Positions 2,989-63,770 of a stretch of 64,000 nucleotides of DNA are shown here, one piece after another. Every line of letters begins with the position of its first letter. The stretch's first letter is position 1. Below the pieces are notes generated by a model that saw only the letters and a program-made list of their open reading frames with translations, did no database searches and had not been told where the DNA came from. The translations under genes were made by a program, and so were the position numbers. The DNA lies in contig JACKGJ010000002.1 in NCBI GenBank assembly GCA_020631995.1, forward strand, positions 154,773 through 218,772, read 5' to 3'. Source of the DNA: Candidatus Nomurabacteria bacterium (GTDB lineage: Bacteria > Patescibacteriota > Minisyncoccia > Phycocordibacterales > UBA918).

Positions 2989-5900
2989 CTATTGCTCACT
3001 CGATACAGCACGAATCATATCGTACTTCTTTGAGCCCTTGAAGCCAGAACCAGCTGGGATGAGGCGTCCGATGATGACGTTCTCCATAAGCCCTGCTAGA
3101 TTGTCCTGACTTCCCTTTACAGCAGCGTTAATCAAGATACGAGTAGTATTTTGGAACGATGCAGCTGATAGGAAGCTCTTACGAGACAGTGATGTCTCAG
3201 TAATTCCGAGGATGAGTCGTTCAGACTTCGCTGGTTCTTTGCCATCAGCCTTCATTTTCTTGTTAGCTTCAACAAAGATCCATTCCTCCACCACTTCTCC
3301 AATGGTGAAGTGTGTATCCCCGGCGTCGATTATCTTCACACGACTCATCATCTGCTTAACGATAAGCTCGATGTGCTTACGTGCGATGGTCACACCCTGA
3401 AGTTCGTAAATCTTGTTAACTTCAGAAATGATGTAGTCCTGAGTCAATTCACGATTACCAAATTTAAATAGTTCAGGTAGGTGAGCTGAACCGTCGGTCA
3501 TAAGTTGACCACCAGTTACATTATCTCCTACTGATACAGTAACCATACGACGGTAATTTACTTCATACTCTAGGTTGTCAGAGGTCTTCTTAGCGTATTT
3601 AGCACCCTTAACTGGGGTAACTACGATAACCTTCTCCTTACCTTCACGACGGATTTCAGTAACGATACCATCGGTCTTAGAAACGATAGCAGGAATCTTC
3701 GGCTGACGTTTTTCAAATACTTCTTCTACACGAGGAAGACCTTGTGTTACGTCTCCTCCGACTGACGCAGCTCCTCCAGCGTGCTTTGTGTTCATCGTTA
3801 GCTGAGTACCTGGCTCACCAATCGCTTGGGCTGCCACAGTACCTACTGCTTCACCGATGTCCACTACACGGTTAGTGGTAAGGTCGTGTCCGTAACACTG
3901 CTGACATACTCCACGCAAGGTGGCACAGGTCATTGGTGAACGCACGACTACTGATTCACAAGTTGAGCCTTCAAGGGCGATAGCATCACGACGTGATAGT
4001 AGGTGACCCTTTTTGAAAATCACTACTCCCTTATTGTCTACAGCATCTTCTGCTAGTACGCGACCCTTAATAGCCTTAGAGAAAGCAATCTCGATACCAG
4101 AAGCAGAAATGCGCCCAATCTTAGTTCCCTGCTTAGTCTTACAGTCTTCCTCAGTCACAATAGCGTCTTGCGCTACTACGAAGAGACGACGAGTTAGGTA
4201 ACCAGCCTTAGCGGTTTGAAGCGCGGTGTCGGCTAGACCCTTACGTGAACCGTGAGTGGTGATGAAGTATTCAATCGGTGTCATACCTTCCTTCATAGAA
4301 GAAAGTACTGGGAACTCTAGAGTTTCACCACGAGTGTTAACAATAAGACCCTTCATACCAGCCATCTGGGCAATCTGTCCGAGAGAACCACGAGCGCCAG
4401 ACTTCCACATCTCGAAAGCAGAACCGTTTTCATCGAGAGTTTCAGGCAAGATGCCTTCAATCTCACTCTTAGCATGGTGCCAAACACCTACAATCATTCT
4501 GCGACGTTCGTCACGGGAGATAAGACCTTCGTCAAAGTGAGAGAAGATTTCACGCTCAGATGCGCGAGCATTTTCGATGATGCCAGCTTTTCCAGCCGGA
4601 ATAACTACCTCATCAATACCCCAAGTGGTACCTGACTGTGTTGCGTATTTGAATCCGAATTTCTTGAGACGGTCAACAATTGGTGGAACCGCGTCAGCAC
4701 CACGATCATCAATGATATCAATGATGATATTGAAGAGTGTTTTTTGCACTACTACATCGTTAATGAAGTCGTAGTCACTAGGCAAAACGCTATTGAAGAG
4801 TAGTCGTCCAACTGATGTTTCAAACAACTTACCTTCGTATTGTTTGTACTTTGGAGTATCGGTTGCTAATACCTTAATCTTGGCTCGGAAATCTACAATA
4901 CCGTAATCGTAGGCGTTGATAGCGTCATTCGGGGATGCAAAGAATTTATCTTCTCCCTTAGCTCCATCGATTATCTTAGTCATCCAATATGCACCAAGGG
5001 CCATATCAAGAAGCTTTTCAGAAACTACCGGTTCAGCAGAACCAGGCTTAAGAATGTTCTTGTTAGCAGAAATGATTTCCTTAGCTTCGAGCTGGGCTTC
5101 GTCAGAGAGAGGTACGTGTACCGCCATCTGGTCACCATCGAAGTCGGCGTTGAAAGCGCGACAAACAAGTGGGTGCACTTGAATAGCGTTACCTTCAATA
5201 AGTACCGGGCGGAAAGCCTGGATACCCTGTCGGTGAAGGGTTGGAGCACGGTTTAGAAGTACGTGCTTGTTCTTAATGATGTTTTCCAAAATAGCCCATA
5301 CTTCTGGAACTCCGTCTTCAATCAGGCGCCCTGCCCCACGAATGTTGTATGCAAGCTCCTGCTTTAGAAGCTCAGAAATAACAAATGGTCGGAACAGCTC
5401 CAGAGCCATATGTTTAGGAAGACCACATTGATCTAGGTCTAGGTCAGGACCGATAACAATCACAGAACGTCCAGAGTAGTCCACACGCTTTCCGAGTAGG
5501 TTCTGTCGGAAGTATCCCTGCTTACTCTTAAGGTAATCAGAAAGTGACTTCAATGGGCGACGCTGAGCCTGACTCATCATTGAGTAGGCACTGTTACCAT
5601 GACGGATAGAGTTGTCGATTAGGGCGTCAACCGCTTCTTGCAGGATACGCTTTTCGTTACGCAAGATAACGTCCGGTGCCATAATGTCGATAAGCTTCTT
5701 GAGACGGTTATTACGGTTGATTACACGTCGGTATAGGTCGTTTAGGTCAGATGAAGCGTGACGGCCACCTTCAAGAGCCACCATCGGACGAAGTGCTGGT
5801 GGGATGACTGGAAGTCGGGTTAGGAACATCCATTCAGGACGAACTCCACTGTGGAGCATTCCGCGCACGAGGCCTAGACGCTTGTCGAGCTTGGCTCGCT

Positions 5901-11054: not shown

Positions 11055-11093
11055 ACACAAGCGGGCGGAATCGAAGATTCCGCCCGCTTGTGT
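11055..11093. repeat. perfect 18-bp G+C-rich hairpin abutting the trmD start
   Basis: ACACAAGCGGGCGGAATC-GAA-GATTCCGCCCGCTTGTGT. The GGCGGAA..TTCCGCC core recurs in a hairpin at 28292..28312. Confidence 0.7.
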
Positions 11094-24275: not shown

Positions 24276-24303
24276 TTGACGTAATAATGCCAAGAGTTAT
24301 TAT
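24276..24303 (+). promoter_or_regulatory. sigma-70-type promoter of the thrS leader
   Basis: TTGACG (24276..24281), 16 nt, TATTAT (24298..24303). Confidence 0.6.
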
Positions 24304-24309
24304 CTAGGT

Positions 24310-24477
24310 ACAGAGATTGCTCCGGCTACCAATCGGAGGCATTGTGCGCCACAGGCCTAATCTGTCTAATTAAGCGCCCTAACACAAGTATTACTTGTAT
24401 GGGAAGCTCGGTGGAACCGCGGTTAAGACCGCCCGAGCAAAAATTCAATGATTGAATTTTTGCTCGGGCGTTTTTTG
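24310..24477 (+). promoter_or_regulatory. T-box riboswitch leader (threonine-specific, compact stem I) with terminator
   Basis: T-box-like sequence GCTCGGTGGAACCGCGG. Antiterminator GCTCGG-UGGAA-..GCGG-UUAAGA-CCGC-CCGAGC, whose 3' arm is shared with the terminator GCCCGAGCAAAAATTCAATGATTGAATTTTTGCTCGGGC+TTTTTT (24431..24477). The candidate specifier is ACC followed by A, in GGCTACCAATCGG. Confidence 0.7.
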
Positions 24478-24480
24478 TAA

Positions 24481-24694
24481 GAACCCATCTCGAATAGAAT
24501 GGCTAGAAATAACGTTCAAAATTCGAGCGAAAAACAAGGTGGACTTCGAAGTGAACTAATGTTCATTGAGAAGGAACCGAAGTTTTGTAGCCGAATTTTG
24601 GATGTTAGCTTCAGCCAAGCTAGTCGTTTTTAGATGGGTGTATTACATCCATCTAAAAACGACTCCAGTTGGCGGTTCTATTTGAGATGGGTTC
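24481..24694 (+). repeat. 214-bp element bounded by 19-nt terminal inverted repeats, inserted between the T-box terminator and thrS
   Basis: Left end GAACCCATCTCGAATAGAA pairs with right end TTCTATTTGAGATGGGTTC. The only difference is a G:U pair on the plus strand. Internally there is a perfect 16-bp hairpin (AGTCGTTTTTAGATGG...CCATCTAAAAACGACT) and two GCTAG boxes. Confidence 0.7.
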
Positions 24695-24714
24695 TATTAA
24701 TTAATTTATAAATT

Positions 24715-25941
24715 ATGGAAGAAAGAGATCATAAGAAGATAGGACCAGAGCTAGGTCTTTTCTATATTGACCCAGTGGTTGGGAAAGGTTTGCCTATGTT
24801 TCTCCCGAAGGGGGCAATCATAAAGCGTGAGCTTGAGAACTTCGTTGTGGAAGAAGAAACTCGACGTGGTTACCAGCACGTAGATACTCCCGACTTGGCT
24901 AACTTAGCTCTATACAAAAAGTCTGGGCACTATCCTCACTATAAAGACTCAATGTATGCTCCAATTAACATTGACGATGATGAGTATATGCTCCGTCCGA
25001 TGACCTGTCCGCATCACTTCCAGATGTTCCTTCACAAACCACGAAGTTATAAGGAGCTACCGATGAGAATAGCAGAATTGGCACAGCTATATCGATATGA
25101 ACAGTCAGGAGAGATTATGGGCTTGCAGCGTGTTCGCTCATTCTGTTTAGCTGATGCACATATCATTTGCGCGTCAGAAGAGCAGGCTGCTGAGGAAGCT
25201 GGAAAAGCATTAGAGCTGATTGAGTATATGTCCTCAGTCCTTGGCCTTAAGTTTGGTGAGGATTACCGCTATCGCCTATCGCTCGGTGACCGAGATAATA
25301 CTGAAAAGTATTATGACAATCCTGAAGCCTGGGAGAAGGGAGAAGAACTACTACGTGAGGTAATGAAGAAGCGTGGTAACGAATTTGAGGAAGCAAAAGA
25401 CGAAGCAGCCTTTTATGGACCCAAAATAGATGTGCAAATGAAGAACGTTAATGGCAAAGAAGATACTGCCTTTACCGTACAGTACGACTTCTGTATGCCA
25501 GATAAGTTTGACCTCAAGTACATAGGTCAAGACGGCAAGGAGCACAGAGCTTTTGTGGTGCACCGCTCCTCAGTCGGGGCTATAGAACGTGTAATGGCCT
25601 TCTTGATAGAAAAGTATGCTGGTGCCTTCCCTCTCTGGCTTTCTCCAGAGCAAATAGCTGTCATTCCAGTTTCTGAAAAACACTTTGACTATGCTAGAGA
25701 AGTGCATGAAAAACTAAAGTTGTCTGGAATACGCTCAGTGTTAGATGATGATAATGACTCACTTGGTAAAAAGATTCGTGGTGCTAAACAAGACAAGCTC
25801 CCATACTTTATAGTGGTTGGTGATAAGGAGGTGGAGTCAGGTCAATTGCCACTCGAGAACCGTAGTGGTGAAAAAGTTGAAATGACTATAGACGACATCG
25901 CTCTGAAATTATGTGGTGAGATTAAGTCCCGCTCTTTGTAG
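24715..25941 (+). CDS. thrS: threonyl-tRNA synthetase, catalytic core plus anticodon-binding domain only (no TGS or editing domains)
   Basis: 408 aa. It starts at MEERDHKKIGPELGLFY, equivalent to about residue 241 of E. coli ThrRS. Class II motifs are present (MRPMTCPHH, FRYEQSGE, RAFVVHRS). Confidence 0.9.
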   Translation: MEERDHKKIGPELGLFYIDPVVGKGLPMFLPKGAIIKRELENFVVEEETRRGYQHVDTPDLANLALYKKSGHYPHYKDSMYAPINIDDDEYMLRPMTCPHHFQMFLHKPRSYKELPMRIAELAQLYRYEQSGEIMGLQRVRSFCLADAHIICASEEQAAEEAGKALELIEYMSSVLGLKFGEDYRYRLSLGDRDNTEKYYDNPEAWEKGEELLREVMKKRGNEFEEAKDEAAFYGPKIDVQMKNVNGKEDTAFTVQYDFCMPDKFDLKYIGQDGKEHRAFVVHRSSVGAIERVMAFLIEKYAGAFPLWLSPEQIAVIPVSEKHFDYAREVHEKLKLSGIRSVLDDDNDSLGKKIRGAKQDKLPYFIVVGDKEVESGQLPLENRSGEKVEMTIDDIALKLCGEIKSRSL

Positions 25942-25954
25942 GTGAATGTATCTG

Positions 25955-25996
25955 GGACACAAAAAAGCCGGGCATATGCCCGGCTTTTTTGTGTCC
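25955..25996. terminator. bidirectional intrinsic terminator
   Basis: GGACACAAAAAAGCCGGGCAT-ATGCCCGGCTTTTTTGTGTCC, a long palindrome flanked by A/T runs. It lies between thrS (+) and the convergent surface-protein gene (-). Confidence 0.8.
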
Positions 25997-26109: not shown

Positions 26110-28233
26110 TTATTTCCAGCTCTGATCCGCGTACTTCGCTACCAGCGCTTCGACTTTTTTTCTGTTTTCCGTGTCAGTCTCTGACATACCTGTTCCTGCT
26201 CCATAAAGAGAGAAACCTAGTACGCTACCCTTCTTCACTACAAGGATGTAGGCGATGAAGAGTGCCCAGAGTGTAAGTACAGCGTAGAACAGGAAGGTAA
26301 GGAATGCTCCAGCCTCAAAACCAGTATATGGCACTTGAGTAAGGGCGATTACTAGAGCTTGGTCGCGCTTTTCGTAGACAGCGATATCATCAACATCGAC
26401 GTCTACCTTACAAGTACGACTTCCTCCATCTTCACCTTCAGCCTTCATTCTAAATTCAGTAGACTGATTGATGATAATATCGATTTCACCGTCGAGGTAC
26501 TTCTTACGCTTAGACGAACTGTAGTCATCAGTATCGAAGATGGTATTGCCACGATCGTCCTTGATTACAATTTCATCAACGTTTTTGGTTTCCCAAGAAA
26601 GGGTTACCTTCTCGCCACGCTTTACACGGTCTCTAGAGATATCAAGTTCACACTTTGGAGACTTCTTATTGTCATCTTCATCCTCAATTTCCACTCGTAC
26701 AGTACAGGTATCAGAACCGTTTGTACCAGTAGCAGTAAGGGTGAAGGTCGTGTCGTCGTTAATTTCTACCTTCTTAGATCCATCAGCAGATACGTTACCA
26801 ATACCCTGGTTGATGCTAACAGAAGTAGCGTTGGTGGTGTCCCATGTAAGGGTTACATCATCACCTTCTTCAACCTCGTCGTCAGAAACACGAAGGTATT
26901 CACAACGAGCAGCTTGAGTATCTGATTCTTTAGTTATTGTAACAGTACAAGAGTCACTACCTGATGTGCCGGTCGCAGTTAAAATAAAAGTAGTATTTGA
27001 GTTAACACGTACGGTCTTTGAACCGTCCATAGAAACTGAACCTACGCCATTATTGATCGATACTGAAGTGGTATTGGTAGTTTCCCAATTTAGAGTCACG
27101 TCAGCTCCTCCGGCTGGTACGGTGGTGCGACTAGCTCTCAAGAAGTCACACTTAGGAGCTTCATCTTCTGGCTCATCTTCAACAGTAACTTTTACAGTAC
27201 ACTTGTCAGTTCCACCATTACTATTCCATACGTCTAACCAAAATGTCTTTGAACCGTCTACGAAGACTGTCTTAGAACCGTTGAGGCTAATGTTTGGAGT
27301 AGTACCATAGTGATTAGACTCATTTGAGCCCCATAGAGTTACTCCGCTAGCGTTAGAAGTACTCCAAGAGAAGGTAACGTTACCTCCACCTGCGGGTACT
27401 TTAGTAGTACTAGCGTTTAGGTAGTTACAAACTGGTGCTGGTACATCGATTGGTGTGTCGACAGTAATAGACACGCTACACTTAGCTGACTGTCCAGCAC
27501 TGTTCCAAACATCCAACCAGACATTTTTAGAACCATTTACGAAGACTGTCTTAGAACCACTGAGACTGATATTAGGAGTAGTACCGTAGTGATTAGACTC
27601 TCCATTTCCCCAGAGTGTAGCACCACTGGCATTAGTTGTGCTCCAAGAGAAGGTAACGTTACCTCCACCTGCGGGTACTTTAGTAGTACTAGCGTTTAGG
27701 TAGTTACAAACTGGTGCTGGTACTTGAACTGGCTGTTCAACACTAACTGATGCAGTACACTTAGCAGTTTGACCTGCATTATTCCATACGTCTAACCAAA
27801 ATGTCTTAGATTCATCTACAAAGACGGTCTTAGAACCACTGAGACTGATATTAGGAGTAGTACCATAATGGTTAGATTCTCCAGCACCCCATAGGGTCAC
27901 TCCACTAGCGTTAGAAGTACTCCAAGAGAAGGTAACATTGCCCCCACCTGCAGGTACTTTAGAAGTACTGACATTAAGGTAACTACAAACTGGTGCTGGT
28001 GTAATAGGATCCAGCGGGCCGTCTCCACCACCAATATCACCGCTAGGAGAATCACCACCGCAACAACCACCACCAAAGTCAGCGTCCCAGGCTTCAGCTG
28101 AAGAAGCTGAAGTACTCAAAGAATCAGCTGACCCGCTTATCTGTGGCAACTGAGGTAATACTACAAACATCATCAATGACAAAGTAGCGATTGATGCAAC
28201 GCCGTAGATAGTAAATTTAATCGTATTGGTCAT
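26110..28233 (-). CDS. membrane-anchored surface protein with six Cys-bounded Ig-like repeats
   Basis: 707 aa. N-terminal signal/TM segment. Three 93-aa near-identical repeats (CNYLNASTTKVPAGGGNVTFSWST...) are followed by three diverged 82-90-aa repeats. The C-terminus has VPYTG, then a 29-aa hydrophobic segment, KK, and a 40-aa tail. Confidence 0.8.
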   Translation of the reverse strand: MTNTIKFTIYGVASIATLSLMMFVVLPQLPQISGSADSLSTSASSAEAWDADFGGGCCGGDSPSGDIGGGDGPLDPITPAPVCSYLNVSTSKVPAGGGNVTFSWSTSNASGVTLWGAGESNHYGTTPNISLSGSKTVFVDESKTFWLDVWNNAGQTAKCTASVSVEQPVQVPAPVCNYLNASTTKVPAGGGNVTFSWSTTNASGATLWGNGESNHYGTTPNISLSGSKTVFVNGSKNVWLDVWNSAGQSAKCSVSITVDTPIDVPAPVCNYLNASTTKVPAGGGNVTFSWSTSNASGVTLWGSNESNHYGTTPNISLNGSKTVFVDGSKTFWLDVWNSNGGTDKCTVKVTVEDEPEDEAPKCDFLRASRTTVPAGGADVTLNWETTNTTSVSINNGVGSVSMDGSKTVRVNSNTTFILTATGTSGSDSCTVTITKESDTQAARCEYLRVSDDEVEEGDDVTLTWDTTNATSVSINQGIGNVSADGSKKVEINDDTTFTLTATGTNGSDTCTVRVEIEDEDDNKKSPKCELDISRDRVKRGEKVTLSWETKNVDEIVIKDDRGNTIFDTDDYSSSKRKKYLDGEIDIIINQSTEFRMKAEGEDGGSRTCKVDVDVDDIAVYEKRDQALVIALTQVPYTGFEAGAFLTFLFYAVLTLWALFIAYILVVKKGSVLGFSLYGAGTGMSETDTENRKKVEALVAKYADQSWK
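27151..27987 (-). repeat. 3 x 279-bp in-frame tandem repeat inside the surface-protein gene
   Basis: CTCCAAGAGAAGGTAAC... recurs at 27362, 27641 and 27920, a period of 279 bp. Long stretches are identical between copies. Confidence 0.9.
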
Positions 28234-29106: not shown

Positions 29107-29277
29107 CCAGATTTACTAGCAATGTCGCGTTCATCCCAGAGGCTCTGCCTCTGGGATGAACGCGACCATTTAAAACAGTATCGCCGGAGGGCGATTCCCT
29201 AGCTAGCAAAAACGCCTGGTTCCGACCGCGTAATGCCTCGGGATTCTATCCCGAGGATAGCGGGGCGGACGTTTTTA
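29107..29277 (-). repeat. GCTAG-box intergenic element, core type with 19-bp terminal hairpin (copy B)
   Basis: The minus strand reads TAAAAACGTCCGCCCCGCTAT-CCTCGGGA-TAGAA-TCCCGAGG-CATTACGCGGTCGGAACCAGGCGTTTTTGCTAGCTAGGGA-ATCGCC-CTCC-GGCGAT-ACTGTTTTAAATG-GTCGCGTTCATCCCAGAGG-CAGAG-CCTCTGGGATGAACGCGAC-ATTGCTAGTAAATCTGG. It begins on the sortase stop codon. Confidence 0.75.
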
Positions 29278-38493: not shown

Positions 38494-38569
38494 GCCGAGG
38501 TAGCTCAGTTGGTAGAGCAGCCGATTTGTAATCGGCCGGTCGCAGGTTCAAACCCTGTCCTCGGCTCCA
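38494..38569 (+). tRNA. tRNA-Thr (anticodon UGU), CCA encoded
   Basis: Manual cloverleaf: acceptor GCCGAGG/CCTCGGC; D arm GCTC-AGTTGGTA-GAGC; anticodon arm GCCGA-TTTGTAA-TCGGC; variable loop CGGTC; T arm GCAGG-TTCAAAC-CCTGT; discriminator T; CCA. Confidence 0.9.
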
Positions 38570-42342: not shown

Positions 42343-42380
42343 AAACGCTCTGCTTATCACCGATGATAAGCAGAGCGTTT
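42343..42380 (-). terminator. intrinsic terminator after rpmE
   Basis: AAACGCTCTGCTTATCA-NNN-TGATAAGCAGAGCGTTT. On the minus strand it is followed by CTGTTTT. Confidence 0.6.
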
Positions 42381-44157: not shown

Positions 44158-44174
44158 TGTGGTTATTATAACAA

Positions 44175-44207
44175 CAAAGTGCGGGCACTAAAAGTGTCCG
44201 CACTTTG
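44175..44207 (-). terminator. terminator-like hairpin after rplY
   Basis: CAAAGTGCGGGCAC-TAAAA-GTGTCCGCACTTTG. Confidence 0.5.
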
Positions 44208-44226
44208 TATCTGAGAATCAGTTAAA

Positions 44227-45954: not shown

Positions 45955-45971
45955 ATTTATCTCTGGTTCAT

Positions 45972-46002
45972 AAAAGCGGTGAGGCAAAGCCTCACCGCTT
46001 TT
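45972..46002. terminator. bidirectional terminator
   Basis: AAAAGCGGTGAGG-CAAAG-CCTCACCGCTTTT, within a longer palindrome (GTTCATAAAAGC...GCTTTTATGAAC). Confidence 0.75.
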
Positions 46003-46050
46003 ATGAACACTCTCCTCTCACCTTGTAATGAATTACTTCAATAAAAGTAA

Positions 46051-49000
46051 TTATGGAGTAGTTGGAATCGGGTCCTCAGCTGGTGTGGTTGGTTCAGGTT
46101 TCTTAGTTGATGCTTCGGGAGTGGTCACTGTGTCCTTACTAGATTCATCAATTTGGGTATCGTTAGTACTATCTGCCTCAGTTGATTCAGATTCATTAGA
46201 GATAGTCTGACTCTCGTCATCAGTTGTTGCTTCGCTATCATTCTCAGTGTCTGGGGACTCACTAGTGTTCTTTGTTGTGTTATCAGCTTTGTTCGTTTCG
46301 TCTACTATCTCGTCTACAGGCGTACTTATATCATCAGTTTCATCAGCACTTTCTGTGCCCGTGACATCTTCAGTATTTTGAGGTCCTATGTCGTTCTTAG
46401 TGTCTGACGTAGTCTCAGGCACAGGCTCCGATTCTGGATAAACTGCAGGCTCGGTATTTGTTTCGTCAAGAATCTTGAGTACCTGTTCTTCTGAAAGGCA
46501 GGTGTTACCAACACACAGTAATTCAGTATGAATGACAGTGGCAGTCAACTTCTGCACCACAATCTCCACAATTCTAAGCACTCCATCTACAAAGGCCTGA
46601 GCTAGCTCTATCACTCGCTCAAAGAGTGAGTGAGCTGAGAACGGTTCAGTAGAAGAAGCAGTTGATGAAGCGTTCTGGTAGTAGTACGCCATCATAGAGT
46701 CACCAAGGTCTAGGTTAACAAATACTTCAACCGTACCTGGTTCTTCTGCACTAAATGGTGCTAGAGCGTAACCAATGACAGCGTCACCTATCTCTGCTTT
46801 ACGAGCTACTCCAGGAGTACTAGTACCCATAGTGATTAAGTCACCGATAGCTATTACGCCGCCATCAATAGTTACCTTCACTGGTACACGTCCTGCTAGT
46901 GCTATTGGTACCTTTAGTGCTCCTTCATTAGCATTGTCGTCTAGGACGATACCAGGTTTAGTCGCTACGATACCTACTACTCGCTCTCCCGCCATACCGG
47001 TAGCTTTCTTAACGTAGCCAGGACGTTCTGTGTCTAGTGCTACTACGTCACCGGCTTCGAGGTCACTTTCTGCTGTGGCGTACATTTCTGCCAGGTCGGC
47101 TCCACCGGTGTTTTCTGCGACGTATGAGATGTATGCATGGGCGGTGCCGGAGAAGGAGCTTCCTAAATTAGAGTACTCATTTATATCCTGCCCAGTAAAG
47201 CCAACCACAAACATTTTGGTACCGTCAGCATTAAAGGCTAAGTCTTGTGGTTGAGTGTCCTGACTTACTACACTAAAGGAATCGACGAAGGAGGCAGTCG
47301 AAACATCAAAGCCAGTACTAAGATTGTATTTATTGACGTCTTGTCCGCCATAACCTACTAATAACATTTTGGTGCCGTCAGGTGAAAAGGCGAGGCCTTG
47401 TGGTGTAGTATCCTGCGCTGCCACACTAAAGGAATCGACGAAAGAGGCTGTAGATAAGTCAAATCCGGTACCAAGGGTGTATTCGTTGACGTCGTTGCCA
47501 GTTTGACCCAGTATGAACATTTTAGTTCCGTCTGAGTTGAAGGCGATACTCCATGGCTGAGTATCCTGACCTGATACACTAAAGTTACTGGCATAGACAG
47601 CAGTAGAAACATCAAAGCCAGTGCCAAGATTATATATATTGATATCTTGTCCACTGGAGCCAACCACAAACATTTTGGTACCGTCTGTATTGAAGGCGAG
47701 ATCGGTCGGATAAATATCTTGCGCTGTCACACTAAAGGAATCAACATATGAGGCGGTCGAAACATCAAAGCCGGTGCTGAGGGTGTATTCGCTGATGTAA
47801 TCATTGACATTACCCACTACAAACATTTTGGTACCAGTGGGGTTAAAGGTGACGCCTATTGGTTGGGTCTGTTGCCCGGACACACTGAAAGAATCAACGA
47901 AAGAGGCATTTTGGATATCATAACTAGTATCTTCTGCTACTACAGTAATCGAACTATCGGCACTCACTACACGGTAATTTTTGTTACCTGCCACGGTAGT
48001 CATTACGGTTTCACCATCAATAGTTAGGATGAGTTGTCCACCAGTCATAGCAGTCGCATCCAGCACTACTTGCACGGTTGATGTGGCGTCAAATGATGTA
48101 ACTGCATTCCAAGTACTGGTAGCTGTGAAGGTGTGTGAAAGAACACCATCGTCAGCCGAACCTCCAGCAGAGATACCAAGTGATGAGGTAGCTACCCACT
48201 GCAAGCCTGAGCCGGTTGACTGAAGTACCATACCAGCCGAGCCAGCTGAACCAATACTATCGAGCAGTGAACCAGTTAGTGAAAGGCTACCAGAGACAGA
48301 AAGGTTGCCTGCGATCGTAGAAGTAGCGGTCGTAGATGAGGTGGTGAAGTTGTCGAAACTAGCGGTACCTTCTACGGTGAGCTTCGAGGACGGTGTAGTG
48401 GTACCGATACCGATATTGCCCGAGTTGTAGTAGATGTCTGAGCCAGTAGATGTCCATTGTGAAGAGACCTTACTAGCCCATTCTGTAGTACTTGCTATCA
48501 GCGGGATACTGTATCCAGCAGTTAGTGAAGTAGCTCCGGTAGATGAATTGTATGTGAGGCCGGTAGCTGAGTTAGAGAATAGGTTGCGGATGTATGAAGG
48601 AGTGAGGGCGGTGGTTGAGGCAGCGGCTGCGTCCCAAGAAGCACTGTTTGCTGTGACGGTGTTGTATGTGTTGTTCCAGTTGGTTGTGCTGGCTGTGAGT
48701 GGGATGTTGTATCCAGACGTTAAACTAAATACACCAGTTGAAGTAGCGTACGAAAGACCAGTAGCAGACGATGAAAGAGTGTCGCGGGCACGTGCATCAG
48801 TGAAGTATAGATTACCGTTTTCTGTAATGTCTCCAGTGTCTAGTACTACTACGCCGATTTGACCGTTTACAGAATCTACTGCACCCCCTCCGGAAATTCC
48901 CAACGAAGAAGTGGCAATGTTACTCCAAGCAGAACCGGTCCAAACTAACAAATTACCAACAGCCTCAGTCATTGAAGCAACATCTGACAAATCCTCTAGA

Positions 49001-63733: not shown

Positions 63734-63770
63734 AGAACAAAGCGCAAGGCTTCGCCTTGCGCTTTGTTCT
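63734..63770. terminator. terminator-like hairpin after dnaJ
   Basis: AGAACAAAGCGCAAGG-CTTC-GCCTTGCGCTTTGTTCT. Confidence 0.5.

Follow-up and report, generated by a model that had tools for sequence, protein, structure and literature searches.

A compact T-box-like leader and an inserted mobile repeat upstream of thrS in a Patescibacteria genome

Which parts of a gene's leader belong to its regulator, and which parts have merely arrived there? T-boxes are a textbook case of one RNA reading another, and the question is raised here by a T-box-like sequence in front of thrS, the gene for threonyl-tRNA synthetase (ThrRS), on a Candidatus Nomurabacteria contig (JACKGJ010000002.1). The window that we analysed is a stretch of 64,000 nucleotides (positions 154,773 to 218,772 of that contig, forward strand), and all positions below are counted from its first letter. 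An earlier note on this DNA had read the thrS leader as a compact threonine T-box followed by a block closed by inverted repeats, and had left two explanations for the block: an insertion resembling a miniature inverted-repeat transposable element (MITE), or a second RNA domain acting on translation. We consider it highly probable that the 446-nt spacer between the end of dnaE (24268) and the start of thrS is occupied by a minimal thrS T-box attenuator together with a recently inserted, noncoding mobile element that is a passenger there. All the sequence features listed in the earlier note are present, at most 1 nt from where it had placed them.

The T-box is best seen in a comparison of related leaders. 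Of the relatives that have a name, a Candidatus Kaiserbacteria genome (Patescibacteria / Paceibacteria) is the closest. When the thrS loci of 80 species-representative genomes were compared (ThrRS 68-79% identical), 11 proved to share the architecture of the leader, which has a fixed order: N-R-G-A, GAUUG, a hairpin of 6 bp whose loop has 7 nt, a further one or two small hairpins, CUAA, U-C-Y-N, a linker, in most cases Stem III, the T-box antiterminator and a terminator that overlaps it. Twelve leaders were aligned with MAFFT, and a covariance model, R1, was built from the same twelve. In this set the named helices are paired at 93.8%, compared with 29-41% when the partners are slid, and 11 pairs have changed on both sides; RNAalifold recovers the same helices independently.

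Seven closer ThrRS clusters (81-97% identity) were fetched after R1 had been built. The model finds every leader in all seven, and the eight distinct leaders that had not been used for training score 82-108 bits. For the resulting 20 distinct leaders, 94.2% of the cells are paired (31-41% with slid partners), 13 pairs have changed on both sides in a compensatory way, and none of 500 shuffles reaches the observed covariation score. Every conserved helix of the leader is supported by covariation.

Further, the codon displayed by the leader fits the gene. The note had placed a candidate specifier, ACC-A, in a short hairpin loop, and this is what we find: the triplet lies in the 7-nt loop of a 6-bp hairpin, P2 (24320-24338). 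It is ACC in 18 of the 20 leaders and ACG in the remaining two, both of them threonine codons, with A as the next base in all, and every one of these leaders is located upstream of thrS. The loop, C-U-ACC-A-A, is laid out like an anticodon loop, with a pyrimidine and U ahead of the three bases and a purine and A behind them. The strand 3' of CUAA pairs with the extreme 5' end of the transcript to form P1, which closes a four-way junction. Between the transcription start and the linker there are only 56 nt, and the long Stem I platform is absent; the comparison of leaders supports the idea that Stem I is much shorter than canonical. We discarded an alternative register for the junction, AGAUUG/UAAUCU, since covariation speaks for CAGA/UCUG alone.

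Homology with three relatives (Table 1) suggests that P3 and P4 form two 3-bp hairpins in the window. The minimum-free-energy fold of the window instead contains one 9-bp hairpin in their place, which also takes up A24338 and C24357-U24358. On inspection of the 20 leaders, P3 proves to be variable in sequence and no more than a plain hairpin with 3-10 bp, and the P4 loops vary between UUAU, UUCG, GAAA, GAGA and others. The same inspection found no complement to the P4 loops in the linker or downstream, and neither a Stem II S-turn nor a Stem IIA/B pseudoknot is evident.

An observation on this part of the leader comes from two relatives, L224 (1309-1441) and L223 (1314-1441). Their ThrRS protein, promoter, linker, T-box and terminator are identical, whereas a block of about 40 nt holding P2, P3 and P4 differs: UUGUGG/CCACAA with GUCUAUGAGAC and GCUCACUUUGAGC in L224, CUCCGG/UCGGAG with GCAUUAUGC and GCCAUAGGC in L223. 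The L224 block resembles that of L232, whose ThrRS is at 84%, and the difference looks like a modular swap of decoding hairpins by recombination.

The 3' half of the leader contains the switch. The T-box-like core GGTGGAACCGCG (GGUGGAACCGCG) is present as noted before; it begins at 24410, within the conserved T-box sequence UCGGUGGAACCGCG (24408-24421). The UGGA bulge is found in all leaders, and the antiterminator helices A1 and A2 covary over the 20 leaders. The claim that the 3' arm of the antiterminator is shared with a strong terminator is borne out: this arm is the 5' strand of the terminator, so the two structures are mutually exclusive. The fold energy is -30.9 kcal/mol for the terminator hairpin and -16.4 kcal/mol for the antiterminator, a gap that fits what a tRNA-stabilised switch requires. 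Of 12 inspected relatives, 11 have the terminator hairpin and its T-run; the overlap of the terminator with the antiterminator is retained in relatives, and their thrS ATG lies 25-60 nt past the terminator. Stem III is wholly different in sequence among the window, L223, L230 and L224 (ThrRS 96-97% identical), and it is a hairpin in each of them.

The note had also matched the UGGA bulge to a U discriminator in the tRNA-Thr at 38494. This tRNA does carry U73, followed by CCA, and the fourth base of UGGA is complementary to it. In the mechanism that we propose, the nascent leader would fold into a very small four-way junction whose arm P2 shows the threonine codon ACC. The anticodon of an uncharged tRNA-Thr would pair with ACC in the loop, while its free U73-CCA end would pair with UGGA in the T-box bulge. 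The second contact would stabilise the weak antiterminator against the stronger terminator, and the polymerase would read into thrS. A charged tRNA-Thr would be unable to make it, and transcription would end at 24471-24476. We read 24310-24476 as a functional-looking, promoter-proximal T-box of the transcription-attenuation type for thrS; we infer that it binds tRNA, that read-through responds to this binding, and that the junction has a role in it.

The block behind the terminator is an insertion. The inverted repeats that bound it and their single G:U pair are as the note had described, while the precise ends lie one base further out on either side, at 24480 and 24695 instead of 24481 and 24694, with repeats of 20 rather than 19 nt. 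The G:U pair, on the + strand, is their sole non-Watson-Crick position. The element thus measures 216 bp; it begins 3 nt past the T-run of the terminator and ends 20 nt before the ATG. The note had considered that such a block might be conserved in all relatives. In fact it is absent from 19 of 19 other distinct T-box-bearing thrS leaders, including those of strains with 96-97% identical ThrRS. Empty sites are found in L223-L228 and L230; six independent assemblies of a strain with 97% identical ThrRS and one with 96% have the same promoter, junction, T-box and terminator without the element. The empty-site strains read ...GGGCGTTTTTCGT joined to TATTAAC..., that is, ...GGGCGTTTTTCGT followed by TATTAACTAATT...ATG, and the filled site in the window reads ...GGGCGTTTTTTGTA, the 216 nt, and then ATTAATTAATTT...ATG.

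The distances tell the same. From the end of the match to the T-box model to the ATG there are 60-62 nt in the closer relatives versus 275 nt in the window. In the more distant leaders, L051 excepted, the match to thrS starts at a distance of 86-161 nt from the T-box core; in L051 the gene starts about 105 nt past the core. The thrS leader of L004 (2375-2500) contains a run of N flanked on both sides by a near-duplicate terminator, a scaffolding artefact at the hairpin that makes the T-box-to-ATG distance of 161 nt in this contig unreliable.

Diverged relatives of the element are dispersed in metagenomes, at four intergenic sites that are unrelated to one another and adjoin different housekeeping genes. 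A metagenome scan with the 19-nt element end gave 19 contigs, among which BLAST with the whole element sorted the true relatives from chance matches in coding sequence. One copy is 204 bp long and 76% identical over its full length (L097 = L095), one has 218 bp (L091), one has 166 bp and lacks the second hairpin (L096 = L092 = L086), and a 50-bp version consists of the two element ends only (L102). Fragments are found in L088, L098, L093 and L087. The full copies are located between genes (dut/DUF2914 gene, D-Ala-D-Ala carboxypeptidase gene/dnaX, ppa/tig) and a fragment follows uvrB; two copies run in the direction of the genes beside them (sense) and two against it (antisense). Six matches to the 19-mer, in coding sequence or near phage genes, are due to chance (L084, L085, L089, L094, L101 and, from the viral scan, L103). 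Likewise, three scans of viral contigs, with the repeat end and two internal motifs, gave chance matches only, the single-end matches being in coding sequence.

Empty sites in close strains, together with dispersed copies in both orientations, argue that the element is a mobile, noncoding, MITE-like insertion and not a domain specific to thrS, which supports the first of the two explanations left by the note. It would have inserted 3 nt past the T-run in the recent past of this strain. The note had further tied the block to a dispersed family by two GCTAG boxes. This link does not hold: the window contains 48 GCTAG, about one per 1.3 kb, so that two within 216 bp carry little weight, and the motif, not being enriched, was discarded as a family marker. 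Only the first GCTAG of the element is conserved in its relatives.

The element is strongly structured. Its fold has an energy of -114 kcal/mol (z = -16 against shuffles), and no match to its inverted repeat occurs in any shuffle of the window. The perfect 16-bp hairpin seen before is present inside it, at 24622-24664. The only open reading frame (ORF) within the element has 44 amino acids and is not called as a gene. Rfam shows no family in the element (E <= 10) or in the contigs that carry its relatives (E <= 0.1). Compensatory changes are found in 15 of the 60 consensus pairs, and at the tip of the long hairpin GA/GA internal loops are kept while the helix sequences change. In all four copies the strand that corresponds to the mRNA in the window has the better fold, by 4-27 kcal/mol over its complement; G:U pairs are commoner on this strand in three of the four, and in L096 the antisense fold has more. 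We dropped an identity as a retron noncoding RNA or 6S RNA: there is no reverse transcriptase beside any copy, the orientation is inconstant, and an ends-only version exists. The stretch UUUGUAGCCG of the element (24584-24593) is complementary at 9 of 10 positions to CGGCUACCAA in the specifier hairpin (24323-24332). This match was the weakest of the complementary pairs detected and is probably due to chance, and a stable helix buries the stretch; other element copies read GCAGC at its counterpart and match the specifier hairpin less well.

For thrS itself the insertion may have had little consequence. When the complete leader is folded, all pairs of the element are internal, the terminator is unchanged and 24696-24714 stays open. 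No extra terminator-like or promoter-like site was found on the + strand inside the element. It would be transcribed on read-through only and fold back on itself, so that neither the terminator nor the A/U-rich start region would differ from its state in element-free strains. Most likely the element is a tolerated passenger; it might nevertheless affect the stability of the mRNA, or its 20-bp helices might be cleaved by RNase III.

How well does this picture stand against its alternatives? The leader might be a plain terminator with a chance or decayed T-box motif and no tRNA sensing. The Rfam comparison fits such an explanation in part: RF00230 is the best match in the leader (27 bits, E = 4e-4 in a 561-nt search), and its score is below the gathering score of 93, a result that the note had named as speaking against a T-box. 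At the gathering threshold, Rfam finds tRNA alone in the whole window. The alignment to RF00230 is convincing only from Stem III onward, and its Stem I columns were assigned to the promoter and the last part of dnaE, which precede the point where transcription probably starts. There is no platform, neither an S-turn nor a pseudoknot is evident, and an exact 12-nt copy of the core GGTGGAACCGCG occurs in apparent coding sequence at 4682-4693. This copy is a chance match and not a second T-box, having neither antiterminator nor terminator around it, which means that the core motif alone is not diagnostic. However, the low Rfam score is not decisive, because RF00230 requires a long Stem I. What makes a leader that does not sense tRNA very improbable is the full architecture with compensatory changes in 20 leaders, with ThrRS down to 68-79% identity, a loop codon that varies only among threonine codons, and the retained overlap of antiterminator and terminator. 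Several facts do weigh against our reading of the locus as attenuator plus mobile passenger. Besides the distance of the Rfam score from the threshold, also seen in the relatives (22-37 bits), Stem III is missing in three distant leaders (L047, L051 and L083), which have an A-rich linker instead. The isoacceptor in which U73 was seen, tRNA-Thr(UGU), is not the best partner for ACC; the anticodon GGU is needed, and no tRNA-Thr(GGU) is present in the window. Further, according to reviews, T-boxes that act on transcription as a rule require the platform of a long Stem I in order to catch tRNA quickly (PMC7583486), so a platform-less terminator T-box is unexpected and might work poorly or need a helper.

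On the side of the element, the facts to be set against a mobile passenger are the following. There is no target-site duplication: the empty-site comparison permits 0-1 nt, and a scan of the flanks of five copies shows no consistent repeat. A TA duplication, suggested by the distant L006, was ruled out by the near-identical empty sites and the same scan. The search for the 19-nt ends, fruitful in metagenome contigs, gave no second copy of the element or its ends in the 64-kb window, nor is there one in the thrS loci of the 80 relatives. No autonomous parent encoding a transposase was seen in the 64 kb, the 19 metagenome hits or the viral-contig hits. Finally, the strand-biased fold and the 15 compensatory pairs suggest that the element may be more than inert DNA. 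Together with the absent target duplication, the strand bias leaves room for a single-strand or RNA-level step, for which four copies are too few to decide. The element could then be a mobile small-RNA gene, or transpose as a single strand (IS200/IS605-like, HUH-type) instead of as a cut-and-paste MITE, with a functional strand-specific fold; the stability and G:U content of the sense strand and the compensatory pairs, including those of the apical domain with its GA/GA loops, are in line with this. However, IS200/IS605 elements lack terminal inverted repeats and this element has 20-nt ones, its left flank has no conserved target tetranucleotide, neither an internal promoter-like site nor an Rfam match was found, and there are four full copies only, so we hold such an origin to be rather improbable. 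A dedicated second leader domain, a sensor or protein-binding platform that acts on translation or mRNA folding after read-through, is hardly credible, and this explanation of the note is left unsupported. The extreme folding, the coincidence of the stable strand with the mRNA strand and the end close to the ATG would suit it, but the 19 other leaders do without the block, its relatives are found at unrelated genes, half of them antisense to their neighbours, and it does not pair with the start region. It is also unlikely, though worth considering, that the mobile insertion now matters for thrS, by offering 20-21-bp perfect helices to RNase III, which would cut the T-box from the coding part, or, through its compact 5' structure, by altering the mRNA half-life. 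Effects of the latter kind are described for Correia and ERIC repeats in other bacteria. The element has two helices of at least 20 bp on the mRNA strand, and it is fixed in at least two spanning assemblies, L001 and L002, which are identical over the shared region. Against this, there is no sign of selection at the thrS site, close strains manage without the element, and one contig hints at an allele with a different left flank. This contig (L003, from Logan SRR14493015) is identical to 24696-25984 of the window: its first base is the one that directly follows the element, and its last lies midway through a perfect palindrome downstream of thrS. Given how de Bruijn assemblies behave, such a start could reflect a co-existing empty-site allele in that sample, whose junction would read ...TTTTTTGTA joined directly to ATTAATTAAT....

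On our preferred reading, with a minimal attenuator and a mobile passenger, the locus is an example of a riboswitch leader in which 216 nt of self-folding passenger RNA are tolerated between terminator and start codon. The features of the locus are collected in Table 1.

Table 1. Positions of the leader, the inserted element and related features in the window.
Feature	Position	Strand	Evidence or remark
sigma-70-type promoter TTGACG-16-TATTAT	24276-24303	+	10/12 positions match
tRNA-decoding module, 56-nt four-way junction	24310-24365	+	covariation, RNAalifold, homology
P1 closing helix, 5 bp	24310-24314 / 24361-24365	+	3 pairs changed on both sides
J1/2 GAUUG	24315-24319	+	kept in 19/20 leaders
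P2, 6-bp hairpin	24320-24325 / 24333-24338	+	4 pairs changed on both sides
P2 loop CUACCAA, 7 nt	24326-24332	+	specifier ACC 24328-24330, then A
P3 small hairpin (putative)	24339-24347	+	homology with L232, L234, L231
P4 small hairpin (putative)	24348-24356	+	homology with L232, L234, L231
J4/1 CUAA	24357-24360	+	kept in 19/20 leaders
Stem III	24377-24403	+	hairpin in most leaders
antiterminator	24406-24438	+	Rfam alignment of 3' part, covariation, fold
helix A1	24406-24411 / 24433-24438	+	4 compensatory pairs, 20 leaders
T-box bulge UGGAACC, 7 nt	24412-24418	+	UGGA would pair with tRNA U73-CCA end
helix A2	24419-24423 / 24428-24432	+	antiterminator part
intrinsic terminator	24430-24476	+	19-bp stem 24430-24470, T-run TTTTTT 24471-24476
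MITE-like element, 216 bp	24480-24695	+	inverted repeats, fold, empty sites
terminal inverted repeats, 20 nt	24480-24499 / 24676-24695	+	95% complementary
long imperfect hairpin of element	24501-24616	+	fold
variable hairpin module of element	24622-24664	+	16 perfect pairs, G:U, 4 more pairs
A/U-rich unpaired stretch before start codon	24696-24714	+	homologous to post-terminator stretch of relatives
thrS	24715-25941	+	408-amino-acid threonyl-tRNA synthetase; PF00587, PF03129 matches
tRNA-Thr(UGU)	38494-38569	+	discriminator U73, encoded CCA

The promoter that the note had claimed for the leader is present, and a matching -35/-10 pair at equal spacing to P1 is found in the relatives L006, L083, L056 and L223. 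From its position, transcription would start at about 24310, the first base of P1. No Shine-Dalgarno sequence precedes the thrS ATG in 24696-24714, nor is there one in the relatives. The ThrRS encoded here consists of the catalytic core and the anticodon-binding domain only, without an N-terminal TGS or editing domain; in L051 the homologue begins about 530 nt further upstream, with an apparent N-terminal extension. A search for a second T-box of the R1 class, covering the window and related loci with a total of 604 kb, found none.

There are also other repeats in the window. Perfect hairpins of 16-21 bp with loops of 0-4 nt are present at many gene ends, several of them without a clear T-run (25955-25996, 29124-29166, 45966-46008, 63734-63770, 11055-11093, 42343-42380 and 44174-44208). 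One of them, at 29124 (GTCGCGTTCATCCCAGAGGC...), is closely resembled by a hairpin in the metagenome contig L088 (GTCGCATTCATCCCAGTGG...CCTCTGGGCATTTTGCGAC), which adjoins a truncated copy of the element. These hairpins may be a second dispersed or conserved family. Downstream of thrS, on the minus strand, an ORF of 707 amino acids contains three tandem units of 279 nt (27050-27886), and inside another long ORF four overlapping tandem copies of 270 nt are spaced by 153 nt (47179-47907).

When compared with known systems, the element is a new member of a broad kind, the palindromic mobile repeats. Correia/NEMIS from Neisseria, ERIC/IRU from enterobacteria and RUP from Streptococcus are transcribed, palindromic, MITE-like repeats. 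Like them, it is noncoding and within 100-250 bp, has terminal inverted repeats and a strong RNA fold, is found in intergenic regions or untranslated regions (UTRs) in either orientation, and is present in some strains and absent from others. To our knowledge, similarity in sequence to the Correia, ERIC or RUP families is not to be expected. There are also differences: Correia elements duplicate TA at their target and this element shows no target-site duplication, and its interior has a three-part architecture and not one long palindrome, with a 50-bp version made of the ends. No description of such inverted-repeat elements for these small genomes was found in the literature searched, and the element documents an inverted-repeat family in small Patescibacteria genomes.

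For the T-box, no link with Patescibacteria, the Candidate Phyla Radiation or Parcubacteria was found in the literature, the coverage of which was incomplete. Since no relative reaches the Rfam threshold, leaders of this type are invisible to routine annotation, and riboswitch surveys at that threshold overlook the T-boxes of Patescibacteria. It is probable, not certain, that the thrS T-box is new, as a structural variant, not described before, of a known riboswitch class. Only tentatively do we go further and propose that the thrS leaders in this clade of Paceibacteria form an undescribed minimal T-box class, with a 56-nt cloverleaf-like decoder that works co-transcriptionally on an intrinsic terminator and has no platform, S-turn or pseudoknot. 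If this is true, they would be the smallest natural tRNA-sensing transcription switch, hidden from standard models in reduced genomes. A conserved, covarying T-box of the terminator type that lacks these three parts is a natural test of which contacts are required, and the leader is a very small scaffold for engineered tRNA sensors.

Among the closest known counterparts of the leader are the class II, translational T-boxes of ileS, known from Actinobacteria (Mycobacterium, Nocardia; Sherwood et al. 2015, via PMC7583486, PMC10651847). In these the specifier is located in the apical loop of a short Stem I (PMC7583486), and both an S-turn in Stem II and a pseudoknot of Stem IIA/B are essential to them (PMC7583486, PMC10651847, PMC11297988). 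Shared with the thrS leader are a short Stem I without the elbow-binding platform, an apical-loop specifier followed by a purine, a small hairpin with a C-N-U-N-A-type 'F-box' string before the linker, and a canonical Stem III and a discriminator with a UGGN bulge. P4 with CUAA resembles Stem IIA with CGUCA of M. tuberculosis ileS (PMC11297988), which is a resemblance and not a test. In contrast, the expression platform of class II ileS leaders is a Shine-Dalgarno sequestrator, while here it is an intrinsic terminator, and the regulated gene (thrS) and the phylum (Patescibacteria) are different. Further, P2 has no K-turn, P3 is a plain 3-10-bp hairpin without a conserved S-turn, the loops of P4 differ between leaders, with GNRA and UUCG tetraloops among them, and a IIA/B pseudoknot is not evident. 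The covarying P1, which joins the linker to the 5' end and closes the four-way junction, is found in the thrS leader and not in class II ileS.

With the class I T-boxes (RF00230; B. subtilis tyrS, thrS and glyQS) the leader shares the logic and the whole 3' half: Stem III, the antiterminator and its bulge of 7 nt, a terminator that overlaps it and ends in a T-run, and a specifier that matches the regulated synthetase. It differs in the 5' half, which lacks the long Stem I, the K-turn, the S-turn specifier internal loop, the AG bulge and the distal loop. Where the RF00230 model has about 150 positions before Stem III, the decoding module of the thrS leader has 56 nt.

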